Positions 1 through 15,900 of a stretch of 64,000 nucleotides of DNA are shown in pieces (the stretch's first letter is position 1; every line of letters begins with the position of its first letter). The notes under the pieces were generated by a model. That model did no database searches, was not told the DNA's origin, and saw only the letters and a list, made by a program, of their open reading frames with translations. Position numbers and translations under genes: made by a program. The DNA comes from Escherichia coli (GTDB lineage Bacteria; Pseudomonadota; Gammaproteobacteria; Enterobacterales; Enterobacteriaceae), in the NCBI RefSeq assembly GCF_041248615.1, contig NZ_CP158426.1; one strand, given 5' to 3'.

Positions 1-1
1 T

Positions 2-130
2 ATCTGTAAGACACTCATAAAGAATGATTTCTGGTGTCGGACCCTCTCCTTCAGTCCGAACAAACCCCGGCACTATGAACGTTATCTGCAGCGTATGAAA
101 GAAAGGAGGAAGGAATGGGGGATTCTGTGA
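2..130 (+). CDS. 3' end of upstream ORF (possibly ibrA-like partner), truncated by window start
   Basis: Open frame from window edge to TGA at 128-130; its stop overlaps the ATG (115) of the next gene, indicating translational coupling. Only 43 codons visible; identity not determinable. Confidence 0.3.
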   Translation: MCKTLIKNDFWCRTLSFSPNKPRHYERYLQRMKERRKEWGIL

Positions 131-759
131 CACCTGAGGTGGAAGTATTGAGCAACATGATTCGACAGTACTTCAGTCAGGAACGATCTGAAGAAGAGAC
201 CATACGAGCCCTTAATCATCTGCGCAGGGTGTTGCATGAGGTCAGCCCTTTTGCACAGGAGCCTGTGGATTGTGTGTTGTGGGTGAAAGCGGATGAGGTG
301 GTGGCCAACGATTACAATCCCAATGTCATGTCTTCCAGTGAAAAAAAACTGCTTAAACATTCACTGGAGCAGGATGGATTCACGCAGCCTGTGGTGGTTT
401 CGGAAGAGAAGGAGCATTATCTGGTCGTGGATGGTTTTCATCGTCAGTTGCTGGGCAGGAAAGCGGATACGAGAAAACGTCTGAAGGGCTGGCTGCCAGT
501 GGCCTGTATTAATCCAGAGAGAAAGGGACAGGCATCACGTATTGCCGCAACCATACGGCATAACCGTGCCAGGGGAAAACACCAGGTAACGTCAATGTCT
601 GACATTGTCAGGGACCTCTCACGTCTGGGCTGGACAGATGAGCGTATTGGCACAGAGTTGGGCATGGACCAGGATGAAGTGCTGAGGCTGAAACAGATTA
701 GCGGGCTGACAGAGCTGTTTCAGGAAGAGGATTTCAGCCCTGCATGGACGGTTCGTTAA
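115..759 (+). CDS. ParB/Srx-fold, DndB-like (DGFHR motif) protein; IbrB-like
   Basis: 214-aa ORF with motifs NDYNPN ... LVVDGFHRQLLGRKA typical of ParB-like nuclease/DGQHR domains; resembles my recollection of E. coli IbrB. Confidence 0.5.
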   Translation: MGDSVTPEVEVLSNMIRQYFSQERSEEETIRALNHLRRVLHEVSPFAQEPVDCVLWVKADEVVANDYNPNVMSSSEKKLLKHSLEQDGFTQPVVVSEEKEHYLVVDGFHRQLLGRKADTRKRLKGWLPVACINPERKGQASRIAATIRHNRARGKHQVTSMSDIVRDLSRLGWTDERIGTELGMDQDEVLRLKQISGLTELFQEEDFSPAWTVR

Positions 760-779
760 GGGCTATGTTCTGACGAGAG

Positions 780-1070
780 TGTAATTTAAATTTTGTAATT
801 GCCTGTTTTTGATATGTTCCCTACACCGTGGAGACAGGCAATTGATAAACAAGAATCCAATGCTATTGCTGCCGAACTGGTAAATTGCCTTAAAACCGAA
901 TCTGATCTTAACCTGTTTTTATACATGCTTACGAAGTGTACTGTTAAAGATGAGCTTAGCGCTGAACTCACAGAGCATCTTGGACATGAGAACACCTGAG
1001 AATAAAGGCAGCAATGCAAGTAAAGACTACTCGATTAAAACGCTGCTCATAAATGATGCCCTAACAATTT
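780..1070 (+). mobile_element. IS256-family remnant (diverged, frameshifted transposase N-terminus)
   Basis: Terminal sequence gtaattgcctgtttttgatatgttc matches the left end of the intact IS256-family copies; translated fragment ELVNCLKTESDL...LTEHLGHE parallels the N-terminus of the 402-aa transposase. Confidence 0.5.
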
Positions 1071-1252
1071 GTGAAATAGTATTTCGTCCGGGTGTTCGCT
1101 TTGTTTATGTCGTTACGGGGAAGTCATCTTCACAGGGATTTTTAGTCAGTTAGCATTACCGATATCCATTCACTAACTTACCGGAGATAATTGATGTCAA
1201 AACCCCAATGGACCATTGAACAGTAAGCGGTTCGCCAGAACCGTATTGATAT

Positions 1253-2262
1253 TTACTGAGAGCTCAGATCAACTTTCCAGGGCAACAGATCGCGTACCCG
1301 GTTTGTCGGCCAGTCCTGGATATGCTCAATGACGTAACGCAGCCATTTTTCTGGTTCAACATTGTTCAGACGGCATGTGCCGATCAGCGAGTACAACACC
1401 GCCGCATGTTCGCCACCGCTGTCGGAACCCGCGAACAACCAGTTTTTCCGGCCTACGTCCACTCCCCGTAAGGCGTTCTCTGCGATGTTGTTGTCGATTT
1501 CCACCCAGCCATTACTGCAGTACACGTTCAGGCTATCTCACTGTTTCAGCAGGTAGGCGAACGCTTTTACCGTATCCGAGTGACGCGACAGTGTTTTCAT
1601 CTGGGTCTGTATCCAGTCATACAGTGACTGCATCAGTGGCGCAGCTCTGGCTTTTCTTGCCGCCAGACGCTGTTCTGCTGTACATCCCCGGACTTCTGCC
1701 TCGATGGCATACAGTTCACCGATACGCTGCAGGGCTTCCGTGGTGATGTCAGTTGGCGCTCTTGCATGCAAATCGTGGATTTTCCTCCGGGCATGGGCCA
1801 TACACGCGGCTTCCGTTATTCTGCCGGATTCGTATAACGCCCGGTAACCACCGTAAGTATCGGCCTGAAGCACACCGCTGTAACCGGCCAGATGATTCTG
1901 TGGATGGATACCTTTCCGGTCCTGACTGTACGCGAACCAGACCGCCGGGGGCATCTCCGACCCGGCATTACGGTCATCACGGACGTAGACCCACAGCCTG
2001 TCCGTTCGGTTTTTACCACTGCCTGGCTCCTGGACCGGAACGGGGATATCATCAGCATGGACTTTACCGGGCATCAGCACATACTGGCGCAGGACGTCAT
2101 ACAGCGGCTCCAGCAGTTCAGCAACGGTGTCAGCTCCACGTCCTGACTGCGGTATATTTCTGACTGACGGTATAACGGCAGATGGTCTGCATACTTCCCG
2201 GTGACAACATGGGCCAGAAGCCCCGCTCCGGCATAACTGTGTGCAATGGGTTTTGAATGAGC
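1253..2262 (-). pseudogene. IS66-family transposase TnpC, 3' portion (frameshifted)
   Basis: ORFs 1253-1525, 1538-2296 and 2074-2292 carry IS66 TnpC-like sequence in different frames ([23 protein letters not shown] ...). Confidence 0.6.
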
Positions 2263-13842: not shown

Positions 13843-14462
13843 TCAGTGTAGCAAAAACGGGGGTGACCATAGATTTTTTATGATTTTCTCCGCTTTTTTC
13901 AGAATATCCAGTTCCATCTGCCGGCGGCGTATTTCCTGATTCAGTCGGGCGACTTCCTCCCGCAACGCATCGCGTTCTGCCTCTAGGGAAGGTTCGTTAT
14001 GTTTACGCATAGTCTGGTAAGCACTGTTGCCGATAATTTCATCTTTCCATTTATACAATACCGCACGACTGACACCAATACGCCTAGAGATTTCACTGGC
14101 TGATATTTGTCGTGTACAGAATGCCATGACAGCCTGACGTTTGACTTCTGGTTCAAAGGGCGCAACCGGACTGGTCTTACTGGTAAATATACGTCGTCTG
14201 CCGGGGTAACGTTCATTAACCCAGCGAGCGAGCACATCGGTACAGGGATAACCCAGAGTTCTACTGGTAAACGCTAGGCAGCAGCCGTGGTTAAGATAAT
14301 GTTCAACGGCAACTTGTTTTTGCTCATCTGTGTAACGGGGCTTATGGCGAATGGATTCTTTTGCTCCGCCACCTGATTCCTATGAACGGATCCAACGCCG
14401 CAGATTTCTTTTCGAAGGGTAGCCCAGTTCGCGTACGACGGGAGCCAGCTTCTTACCATTGA
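13843..14462 (-). mobile_element. IS3-family OrfA-like remnant (double HTH plus leucine zipper)
   Basis: ORF 13843-14235 ends ...RRRQMELDILKKAEKII, a typical IS3 OrfA C-terminus; upstream part has a stop. Confidence 0.4.
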
Positions 14463-15900
14463 CTAGTCTTGGTATAAGTTGACACTTTTCTGTCTGTAAA
14501 ACGCCTGATGAACGTCATAGGGCGTTTTGTATTTCAGAGCCAGGTGTGGCCGCTCATGGTTATAAATTGCCACGGACTCTTGGACCATTTCCCGGGCCTG
14601 AGCCAGGTCTGCAGGACGCGAGAGTAAAAACTCATTTTTCAGGGTACCATTTATTCACTCAGCCAATGCTGGTAGCAGTCATAACCATCAGTCATTGAAC
14701 AGGTTATTTCATTTCTTTCATGAACTGACTGATAGAGCGCTGAACAGTATTGCAGCCCCTGCCAGAATGATGCACCAGGGGACTCGTCGTTTTTCTCAGC
14801 TTCAGCACCTGTCTGAACGCTTTTACCACTTTTTCTGTCTGCAGGTTTTCCCCAACATGGTAGCCCATAATTTTTCTGGAGCAGGCATCGGTGACCAGAC
14901 TCAGATAGGCCGAACTATTGCGCAGTGGAAGGTAAGTAATATCGGCGACCCGGACCTGTTCTGGTTCAAGAGCAGTAACCTGTTCAGGGCCTGGTTTAAG
15001 CAGGTTTGGATGTCGGTAGAAGCGATGATGGCTGTTGGTAGTTTTGTGATATGACCGTTTTACTGGCACCAGGAGTCGGTATTCATCGGGCAGGTTAAAC
15101 AGGCGGTCTCGCCCGATATTCAGCCTTTTATCGGCCTGAGTGTTCAGCAGATAGTGCAGCTTACGCGCACCGATTCGGGGCTGACGACATCTGACACGGG
15201 CAACAAAATCAAGAACCTGAGCATGATGTTCCTGCCGTTTTCTGCGCCTTGCATTGTCCTGATACCATGCCTGTCTGCTGTGTCCCAGGAACAGACTGCA
15301 CGCGTCACAGTTATTTTGGGGACCGGACTTTGCGCGAGGACTTGCCGGGCCGCTTTTTACGATACTCACCCCGTAATCATTTTTCAGGACATTGATAACT
15401 GACTCAAAAAACGTAGCTTTCTGGTTCGCCAGCTCAAGCTACGTTTCAAGTTCCCTGATTCTTTGCTCGGGTGTGAGCGGGATAGTTGTCTGAGTCACAG
15501 GCAGTTTCCTCTTCACCAGCTCAGGAAGTCCAGGATATTTACGTAACCAGACAAGAACGGTGGAGCGCCCCTGAATGCCATACCGCTGCTGGGCCTGTTT
15601 ATAAGTCATCTCGCCTTTTTCAACCTGCTCAACAACAGCTATTTTAAAGGATAGAGGATAATCACGTTGGGTGCGTTTGAGCTAAGTCATCATTACGTTC
15701 TCCGGATTTAAGTAGGAACGTGTCAACGCTATTCAGGACGGGTCACATATTTGAAATAAAGCTCAATGGCGCGGATTTTTTCTTCTTCAGTAAACATGTT
15801 TCATCTCCTGAGAGTCCAGGAAATCGTCCGCATCCCCATTACTGTCTTATATCATTGGCGCTGACAGCTATTCTGCTGAGCCTTGAGGATGCATAAACGG
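14463..15900 (-). mobile_element. IS3-family element with frameshifted orfA/orfB
   Basis: ORF 14704-15369 has the DDE core (HHSGRGC...); C-terminus continues in another frame to ~14465; OrfA-like HTH (MTYKQAQQRYGIQGRSTVLVWLRKY) at ~15400-15700. Confidence 0.5.

Follow-up and report, generated by a model that had tools for sequence, protein, structure and literature searches.

The ibrA and ibrB genes at the start of an Escherichia coli genome stretch: a phage-derived pair of a PP-loop enzyme and a predicted ParB-fold protein

What does a pair of overlapping genes do if the annotations name one product a sulfur-metabolism enzyme and the other a ParB-like protein? The question is raised by the first 759 nucleotides of a stretch of 64,000 nucleotides from E. 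coli (the window, which means the whole stretch that was analyzed). The identity of the pair is clear. Window 1-759 contains the 3' end of ibrA and the complete ibrB, the “immunoglobulin-binding regulator” pair of E. coli, which has been named in the literature since 2002 and is already annotated. RefSeq names the 214-amino-acid protein (WP_000502867.1) “IbrB-like domain-containing protein,” and in genomes that are 100% identical, the upstream gene is annotated as a “phosphoadenosine phosphosulfate reductase” of 408 amino acids (WP_000017086.1). The sequence-only reading had proposed an ibrAB-like pair, and the RefSeq name and a close phage homolog (described below) confirm this. For the window itself the consequence is small, because the genes are already annotated and are common in E. 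coli. The wider family is a strictly paired module of an enzyme and a ParB-like protein that is found across phages of four phyla, and its sole known phenotype is the activation of prophage genes. The best explanation overall, which we hold with about as much belief as doubt, is that the known ibrAB pair combines an NTP-switched DNA-binding regulator with an enzyme that transfers adenylyl groups.

Only the last 43 codons of ibrA lie inside the window (1-130 on the plus strand; frame 2, nt 2-130, with the TGA stop at 128-130), and the gene starts 1,097 nt upstream. The frame-2 translation (ICKTLIKNDFWCRTLSFSPNKPRHYERYLQRMKERRKEWG) is the C-terminus of the full ibrA, which is at 13904-15130 of locus L001, from an identical genome. 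The complete ibrB reading frame is at 115-759 on the plus strand, and its product begins with MGDSVTPEVE. ibrA and ibrB share 16 nt (115-130, plus strand): ibrB begins with the ATG at 115-117, and ibrA ends with KEWGIL and then the TGA at 128-130, which is not an overlap of the ATGA type. A strong Shine-Dalgarno sequence for ibrB, AGGAGG, can be read at 104-109 (plus strand), within the coding sequence of ibrA and 5 nt before the ATG. The earlier proposal that the start codon of ibrB overlaps the stop codon of the upstream gene was thus partly right: the genes do overlap and there is an internal ribosome-binding site, but the ATG is not on the stop codon. The same 16-nt overlap is annotated for the alleles of UTI89, O157:H7, plasmid p48B2a, and phage PhiR5_2. 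With ibrA followed by ibrB, adjacent on one strand and with overlapping ends, the locus has the layout of an IbrAB module. Scans for promoters and terminators across window 1-1300 gave nothing above the expectation from shuffled sequence. The right-hand limit of the module here is a pseudogene fragment, the N-terminal part of an IS256-family transposase (799-1057, plus strand), which lies outside the module. In BLASTP, this fragment matches the N-terminal part of the transposase of IS1414 (window 25100-26305) with 44% identity and E = 2e-11, and RefSeq annotates a pseudogene at 814-1057. Matches to the UTI89-type and O157-type alleles end at window 755-757.

The pair had been placed at the edge of an island, but this apparent edge is simply where the window begins; the pair itself lies inside a large iuc/sit/iha island. 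In E. coli NRZ14408, which is 100% identical over 25 kb, iucABCD-iutA, sitABCD, sodC, and IS debris are found within 30 kb upstream of the pair, and the end of the island that carries the integrase lies at window 43930-45117, beside ynjA. The description of ibrB as among the few cargo genes that are intact was roughly right, as window 800-45,000 consists mostly of IS fragments or pseudogenes. Both ibrA and ibrB are intact, and their dN/dS values (0.05-0.23 for both genes) indicate purifying selection. Overall, ibrAB forms here a self-contained cassette of two genes that came from phages, set in a mosaic iuc/sit/iha pathogenicity island.

Among 5,426 complete E. coli genomes, 2,124 (~39%) contain ibrAB, with varied flanks and including copies on plasmids. 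The alleles form three groups by identity: 48 records at 99% or more, 1,076 at 95-99%, and 956 at 80-90%; the window copy belongs to the rarest of the three. The named system is that of E. coli ECOR-9 (Sandt et al. 2002, J Bacteriol 184:3640, as cited in PMC7649339), which has the same overlapping genes, an IS-rich island, and the same two families, a likeness drawn from family and annotation. As cited there, ibrA and ibrB jointly activate prophage-borne eib genes. Also, when Shiga-toxigenic E. coli (STEC) were on epithelial cells, ibrB was up 2.4-7.5-fold along with a downstream perC-like gene (PMC7649339). On the side of differences, the window copy is from the rarest allele group, and no annotated eib gene lies in window 1-50000, so this strain may not show the known eib phenotype. 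The ibrAB island of ECOR-9 reportedly shares regions with the SHI-2 aerobactin island of Shigella, which would agree with the presence of iucABCD-iutA upstream of the pair here. Activation of prophage genes may be a by-effect of some other activity of ibrAB. In the literature searched, we found no report of a biochemical activity for IbrA or IbrB, nor any biochemical study of IbrA/IbrB, of DUF3440, or of pairs of a PAPS reductase and a ParB.

ibrAB is mainly a phage module. There are 225 phage records with IbrB and 224 with IbrA, and the two genes are distributed across genera in the same way; the pair is also present in at least 579 IMG/VR stretches. In 76 of 80 IMG/VR loci (viral contigs), IbrA adjoins IbrB, with both gene orders occurring. 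The phages that carry the pair infect several phyla of bacteria (Proteobacteria, Firmicutes, Actinobacteria, and Bacteroidetes). Escherichia phage PhiR5_2 has genes annotated as IbrA and IbrB that are 88-90% identical to the window pair (88% for IbrB). Other carriers of the pair include the phages Akoma, FCL-2, and AQ113. In phages, the neighbors of the pair include a SNF2-type helicase, a second ParB-like protein, and a methyltransferase, with the terminase nearby, and several cultured phages have no integrase in the gene region around the pair. The phage versions also bring an extra domain of ~130 amino acids that has not been described. We looked in the E. coli loci for this third domain, for a conserved upstream reading frame, and for conserved upstream DNA, and found none of them. 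The SNF2 helicase, the second ParB-like protein, and the ~130-amino-acid domain are the partners that our analysis adds to the family.

IbrB was modeled with AlphaFold (AF2; pLDDT 87). The model has a two-helix N-terminal extension (residues 1-47), a ParB/Srx-type NTP-binding domain (residues ~50-157), and a helix-turn-helix (residues ~158-203). The predicted DNA-binding domain (window 586-723, plus strand) comprises helices 158-170, 175-182, and 186-203 of the modeled secondary structure and aligns with the helix-turn-helix of ParB. Three motifs on the plus strand align with the ParB boxes: NDYNPN (residues 65-70, window 307-324) with box I (NPYQPR), DGFHR (residues 106-110, window 430-444) with box II (GERR), and RHNRARGKH (residues 148-156, window 556-582) with box III (ENLQRE). 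The invariant residues in the family are N65, N68, P69, and N70 in the first motif; D106, G107, H109, and R110 in the second; and N150, R151, A152, and G154 in the third. The pairings (NPN with NPxQPR, DGFHR with GERR, and HNRAR with ENLQR) come from hhalign against a manually entered Spo0J sequence and from phmmer against the ParB of PDB 4umk. In the hhalign comparison, the position of the catalytic glutamate of ParB is a histidine in IbrB. The first reading had quoted LVVDGFHRQLL from this 214-amino-acid protein and assigned it to a ParB/sulfiredoxin-type fold. Both the reading frame with its motifs and the fold are upheld: Foldseek matches the model to CTP- or CDP-bound ParB, Noc, and KorB with probability 1.0, and the “ParB-like” family PHROG 2159 matches IbrB with E = 1e-87. 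The Pfam ParB_N match is weak (E = 0.0043), the family being barely visible to this model, and a search of PDB sequences gave a marginal match to ParB 4umk (E = 0.002). The main text of a 2025 survey of the ParB-CTPase fold makes no mention of IbrB-type proteins, and the survey describes NTP specificity as not predictable for this fold (PMC12704722). In the model, IbrB ends after the helix-turn-helix, at 214 amino acids. As modeled, then, it is a ParB/Noc/KorB-like NTP-binding domain plus a helix-turn-helix, with no C-terminal dimerization domain.

We searched for domains of IbrA on the full gene from the identical genome, extending upstream of the 43 codons in the window. The upstream gene is PAPS-reductase-like, as had been suggested: Pfam finds PAPS_reduct (PF01507) in two fragments (E = 1e-7 and 6e-7), along with DUF3440 (PF11922; E = 8e-25), and PHROG 2302 matches with E = 2e-83. 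In the structural model (pLDDT 92), the N-terminal domain is nearest to FMN adenylyltransferase, CysD, and APS/PAPS reductases, at only 16-23% identity. The PDB sequence search gave a marginal match to FAD synthase (E = 1e-4), and no match in the structure search covers the helical DUF3440 domain. Across the family, the SGGKDS PP-loop is at least 91% conserved; D66, E68, D217, and Y233 are invariant, as are five tryptophans (W112, W115, W121, W213, and W219). No cysteine is conserved: the best cysteine column reaches 49% among 80 sequences (IbrA and 79 representatives). IbrA is thus a PP-loop (SGGKDS) adenine-nucleotide alpha-hydrolase followed by helical DUF3440, with no conserved cysteine. 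Compared with FMN adenylyltransferase (the PAPS domain of FAD synthase), CysD, and the APS/PAPS reductases, it has the canonical SGGKDS, lacks the reductase cysteine, has DUF3440 added, and, unlike them, almost always has a ParB-like partner.

In our preferred explanation, IbrB would bind DNA via its helix-turn-helix, with the bound NTP as a switch, as in the ParB-family regulators VirB and KorB, and would act in a complex with IbrA. IbrA would spend ATP to adenylylate a substrate (a position in a nucleic acid, a nucleotide, or a protein) and would neither reduce nor transfer sulfur; ATP-dependent adenylyl transfer is the chemistry that the analysis singles out for ibrAB. The outcome would be altered transcription of prophage genes or other horizontally acquired genes. 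In phages, the pair would probably serve to control phage DNA or to mark it chemically at about the stage of replication or late-gene expression; this would be its native role, and the chromosomal cassette would act in trans on resident prophages. The conserved overlap, the 225 and 224 phage records, and the adjacency in IMG/VR support a paired module, and the phage neighbors described above, with the proximity of the terminase, support a role centered on DNA.

There are precedents for a ParB fold in regulation. VirB of Shigella, KorB of RK2, and BisD are transcription regulators of the ParB family that are switched by CTP; like IbrB, they combine the ParB NTP-binding fold with a helix-turn-helix and are found on mobile elements, and they regulate acquired genes (PMC10770331; PMC12704722). 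IbrB differs from them in its length of 214 amino acids, in having DGFHR in place of GERR and a histidine in place of the catalytic glutamate, and in its need for an enzyme partner, IbrA. Also, ParB, VirB, and KorB require their C-terminal dimerization domain to close the clamp. The lack of this domain in the model and the histidine both count against our preferred explanation. A further reading, which we offer tentatively, is that ibrAB is a phage-derived machine that joins a cysteine-free PP-loop adenylyltransferase to a short NTP switch of the ParB fold, one without the domain that closes the clamp. Its target, DNA or else a nucleotide or a protein, would be marked by an ATP-dependent reaction that does not involve sulfur, or the machine would relieve the silencing of foreign genes, and most environmental phages would add the ~130-amino-acid protein as a third subunit that was lost in E. 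coli.

A rival explanation, which we consider rather unlikely, is the modification of DNA or RNA bases without sulfur. Here IbrA would attach an adenylyl group to the carbonyl of a base, in the manner of TilS, ThiI, and GMP synthase, for displacement by an amine nucleophile; IbrB would bring the enzyme to DNA; the phage genome would be protected from restriction; and the change of expression in E. coli would be a by-product. The canonical PP-loop favors this, the invariant tryptophans could stack on a base, and the helicase, the second ParB-like protein, the methyltransferase, and the adjoining terminase fit with it, as does carriage by phages of several bacterial phyla. However, the top structural neighbors of IbrA form the clade of FMN adenylyltransferase, CysD, and APS reductase, whose acceptors are phosphate or sulfate, and not the base-modifying clade. 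No amidotransferase or other supplier of a nucleophile is a conserved partner in the loci examined, and we found no report in the literature searched of a modified base in any phage that carries the pair.

A module for anti-phage defense or superinfection exclusion, carried by islands and prophages, is improbable. The pair is located on mobile islands, prophage-like elements, and plasmids, proteins of the ParB superfamily occur in several defense systems (PMC12839542; PMC10853773), and in O157:H7 an AAA/helicase-like gene is directly upstream of the pair. But no system in PADLOC v2 is matched by both proteins, and the matches are at the level of superfamilies only (BrxP, E = 2.4e-7, over the PP-loop region; PglX, E = 0.011). 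Furthermore, the flanking genes differ among the E. coli contexts and none of them are defense genes. The lack of any significant PADLOC match beyond the superfamily and the carriage mainly by phages themselves, including cultured ones that lack a nearby integrase, weaken the idea.

Phosphorothioation or another sulfur-based modification of DNA, in which IbrA would be the counterpart of the sulfurtransferase DndC and IbrB that of the regulator DndB, is very improbable. The sequence-only reading had drawn this analogy, and it stands at the level of superfamilies: like dndB and dndC, ibrB and ibrA are neighboring genes for a protein of the ParB/Srx superfamily and one of the PP-loop/PAPS-reductase superfamily. 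Besides the BrxP match, IbrA has a weak PADLOC match to DndC (E = 9e-4, 16 bits). A specific relationship did not survive. Against the NCBIfam model for DndC (TIGR03183), IbrA scores 13.5 bits and the cut-off is 290.4. DndC has a 4Fe-4S site with three cysteines and a cysteine dyad (PMC10853773), whereas IbrA has neither a conserved cysteine nor an Fe-S site. IbrB has no match to DGQHR or DndB models (E of 10 or less in NCBIfam and 0.1 or less in PADLOC; HMMER's filters drop most matches above ~0.1). Dnd systems require a core of DndD and DndE (PMC10853773), and the annotation between -30 kb and +50 kb around the pair has no dndA, dndD, or dndE, and neither do the other contexts examined; nor does that interval contain annotated restriction partners, for which the earlier reading had suggested looking. 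Overall, Dnd-type sulfur modification by ibrAB is unlikely.

A literal reading of the database names (IbrA as an assimilatory PAPS reductase and a sulfur “auxiliary metabolic gene,” and IbrB as a ParB partition protein) is hardly credible, even though RefSeq and phage annotations use these names and the phage gene has been presented as an auxiliary metabolic gene (PMC10434257): IbrA scores far below the cut-offs of the CysH/PAPS-reductase models (27.3 versus 165.1 for TIGR00434 and 31.8 versus 254.2 for TIGR02057), its family lacks the catalytic cysteine of sulfonucleotide reductases (as no cysteine is conserved), and it has a canonical ATP-type PP-loop plus the extra DUF3440, while IbrB scores 13.2 bits against the parB_part model (TIGR00180; cut-off 58.45), has no dimerization domain, and has no ParA annotated in the E. 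coli contexts examined. Both labels, “PAPS reductase” and “ParB partition protein,” are probably misleading. We set aside a toxin-antitoxin reading (TASmania guilt-by-association, for lmo1309/lmo1310 of Listeria; PMC7020466), which derives only from adjacency to a ParB-like “antitoxin” cluster.

We also looked for fusions of IbrA with IbrB among 150 representatives of IbrA. The long members have insertions (one of them intein-like) or unrelated extensions. Separately, two short fragments (P0375 and P0380) match the HMMs of both IbrA and IbrB.

The gene pair at the start of the window is ibrA-ibrB, and the sequence-only reading had already recognized it from raw sequence as ibrAB-like. Many E. 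coli chromosomes match the first 1,250 nt of the window with 100% identity, as does E. coli NRZ14408 over the first 25 kb. In the identical genomes, the upstream gene encodes a 408-aa protein annotated as "phosphoadenosine phosphosulfate reductase" (WP_000017086.1), and the downstream gene encodes a 214-aa "IbrB-like domain-containing protein" (WP_000502867.1). Because the pair is already known and annotated, it is of low interest in itself; what still makes it interesting is the biochemistry of the IbrAB family at large. In three-frame translation, only frame 2 is open at the window start (from base 1 to a TGA at 128-130, the end of ibrA), and the other two frames are closed. ibrB is an uninterrupted ORF of 214 aa (115-759, + strand), with an AGGAGG (104-109, + strand) 5 nt before its ATG. 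Since ibrB begins at 115, the two genes overlap by 16 nt (115-130), which corrects the earlier description of an ATG overlapping the upstream stop; it is not a start/stop overlap of the ATGA type.

IbrA and IbrB form a phage module. Our tblastn searches gave 225 phage records for IbrB and 224 for IbrA, and the counts by genus were identical (Flavobacterium 90, Mycobacterium 60, Streptococcus 21, Arthrobacter 12, Bacillus 8, and others). Among 80 retrieved IMG/VR loci with IbrB, IbrA directly adjoins it, in either order, in 76; in one other (L038), IbrA is about 1.9 kb away, and two of the remaining three have ibrB at the contig end. Escherichia phage PhiR5_2 has genes annotated as IbrA and IbrB that are 88-90% identical to the pair in the window. 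Directly upstream of ibrAB in Lactobacillus phage AQ113, Streptococcus phage Bsingle, and Flavobacterium phage 23T is a SNF2-family helicase of 389-407 aa (L007:2542-3711, L008:2557-3726, and L012:3766-4989; Pfam SNF2-rel_dom and Helicase_C; phrog_62). A second, different ParB-like gene accompanies ibrAB in Mycobacterium phage Akoma (L009:1-4474), Faecalibacterium phage Taranis (L010:3195-8674), and Bacillus phage 031MP004 (L011:2229-5519); in Akoma and Taranis, the module is just 5' of the terminase genes. Furthermore, 60 of the 80 viral loci have an undescribed domain of about 130 aa, always immediately before ibrA, which in some loci extends IbrB at its C-terminus as a fusion (as in L017:5923-7083) and in others has a small ORF of its own (as in L022:6602-7015; another example, upstream of ibrA, is L027:4374-4736). 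This domain contains the motifs RIFH-W-KWE-Y--G-Y and NR-AWLGQAA, has no match in Pfam or PHROG, and is missing from the window and from all of the E. coli and cultured-phage loci examined. The recurrence of these partners (the helicase, the second ParB-like protein, and the WLGQAA-motif domain) points to a DNA-centred function. In Bacillus phage 031MP004, a methyltransferase follows the PAPS-reductase-like gene. A role of the pair in non-sulfur modification of bases, by which phages would protect themselves, is conceivable but rather unlikely.

What is reported from E. coli is an effect on expression: activation of prophage eib genes is said to need both ibrA and ibrB. PMC7649339 cites Sandt, Hopper and Hill 2002 (J Bacteriol 184:3640) for this activity of ibrAB. 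ibrB and an adjacent perC-like gene are induced in STEC on epithelial cells (PMC7649339). In O157:H7, ibrB is directly followed by a PerC-family regulator gene and a gene for a hypothetical protein of 214 aa (L003:8832-9766), and both are reported to be co-induced with it (PMC7649339). In the island of the window, a PerC-family gene is at 35267-35587 (- strand), 34 kb from ibrB, beside ProQ/FinO-family and SSB genes.

A 780-nt query (the end of ibrA plus ibrB) matches 2,124 of 5,426 complete E. coli genomes, with at least 80% of its length covered in 2,046 of these; 67 places on plasmids match as well. Alleles with at least 99% identity (48 records) are of the island type of the window, those with 95-99% identity (1,076 records) include UTI89, where the pair adjoins cobUST, and those with 80-90% identity (956 records) include O157:H7, with its PerC-family gene after ibrB. 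The flanking genes are wholly different among these contexts, and 5' of ibrA the UTI89 locus has no DNA similarity to any of the other four alleles, so the mobile unit is essentially ibrA and ibrB alone. Between alleles, dN/dS is 0.05-0.23 for both genes, which indicates purifying selection. ibrA and ibrB are shown to be coupled in translation, inherited together, and under selection. In O157:H7 (L003:3717-6397), ibrA is directly preceded by genes for a 171-aa hypothetical protein and a 722-aa AAA/helicase-like protein (weak Dda/RecD-like N-terminus, phrog_25411); both are missing from the other E. coli ibrAB contexts and are possibly an unrelated defence-type pair.

The host island (window 800-45117 plus 30 kb upstream) is a heavily decayed mosaic, and ibrAB lies inside it, not at its edge as had been proposed. 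Upstream in the source genome (NZ_LT599825.1, 30 kb) are the aerobactin genes iucABCD-iutA (with iucD frameshifted), sitABCD, sodC, and IS debris. Downstream are IS66/IS21/IS110/IS3 fragments, amiC, iha, ICE remnants, phoX, and the PerC-family gene, and the island ends with a tyrosine integrase (43930-45117) beside the core gene ynjA. Directly 3' of ibrB (799-1057, + strand; ORF 799-996), a sequence that bears the annotation "hypothetical protein" with a frameshift encodes a piece of the N-terminus of an IS256-family transposase (44% identity to IS1414, E = 2e-11). The island also contains the remnant of a group II intron and nested IS66/IS21/IS110/IS3/IS256 fragments. Across the roughly 80 kb examined around ibrAB, the annotation has no dnd, restriction, or eib genes. 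A role of the pair in anti-phage defence seems improbable.

Sequence models barely detect IbrB: Pfam's ParB_N gives E = 0.0043 and NCBIfam's parB_part gives 13 bits (cut-off 58). PHROG 2159 ("ParB-like partition protein") matches at 1e-87. The best Foldseek matches of an AlphaFold2 model (from 42 homologues, mean pLDDT 87) are CTP/CDP-bound ParB, Noc, and KorB (probability 1.0), with the HTH covered as well as the nucleotide-binding domain; sulfiredoxin and serine kinase rank lower. Residues that are invariant in family alignments are grouped in NDYNPN (residues 65-70), DGFHR (residues 106-110, nt 430-444, within LVVDGFHRQLL), and RHNRARG, which align to ParB boxes I, II, and III. The position of ParB's catalytic Glu is His in IbrB (B. 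subtilis Spo0J serving as a reference here and for the boxes). Also, IbrB ends directly after the HTH, so the clamp-closing dimerization domain of ParB is missing. The model shows IbrB as a predicted ParB-fold NTP-binding/HTH protein. A survey of the ParB-CTPase fold mentions neither IbrB nor PAPS reductase in its main text (PMC12704722).

The upstream ORF is PAPS-reductase-like, as anticipated: Pfam identifies PAPS_reduct (as two pieces) and DUF3440 in IbrA, and PHROG 2302 matches at 2e-83. Against NCBIfam models, IbrA stays well under the curated cut-off for each characterized family, with 27 bits for CysH (TIGR00434, cut-off 165), 32 bits for PAPS reductase (TIGR02057, cut-off 254), 32 bits for CysD (TIGR02039, cut-off 397), and 13.5 bits for DndC (TIGR03183, cut-off 290). 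Searching 1.84 billion cluster representatives yielded 1,856 relatives, and we aligned IbrA with 79 full-length representatives. Across these 80 sequences, conservation of the PP-loop (SGGKDS) is at least 91%; the residues D66, E68, D217, and Y233 never vary; several Trp and Arg residues hardly vary; and no Cys is conserved (best column at most 49%). IbrA is thus shown to be a PP-loop enzyme without conserved cysteines. A canonical ATP-type PP-loop without conserved Cys favours adenylyl transfer and argues against both sulfonucleotide reduction and the Fe-S sulfur transfer of DndC (PMC10853773). The proposed analogy to DndB/DndC of DNA phosphorothioation stands at the level of the fold and fails at the level of family, as DGQHR/DndB models (NCBIfam, PADLOC) do not match IbrB; Dnd-like sulfur modification is very unlikely. 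A literal PAPS reductase with a partition protein, as the annotations would have it, is slightly less plausible still.

The ParB-fold proteins VirB, BisD, and KorB regulate transcription via CTP-dependent switching (PMC10770331; PMC12704722). In the general model that we prefer, which has roughly an even chance of being correct, IbrB in complex with IbrA would target DNA and serve as an NTP switch, IbrA would adenylylate some substrate, and prophage genes or other foreign genes would as a result be expressed differently. Finally, in a 631-aa IbrA representative (P0408), about 220 aa resembling an intein are inserted directly after a near-invariant Y-N motif (Y229-N230 in the query), which is consistent with this site being functionally critical.
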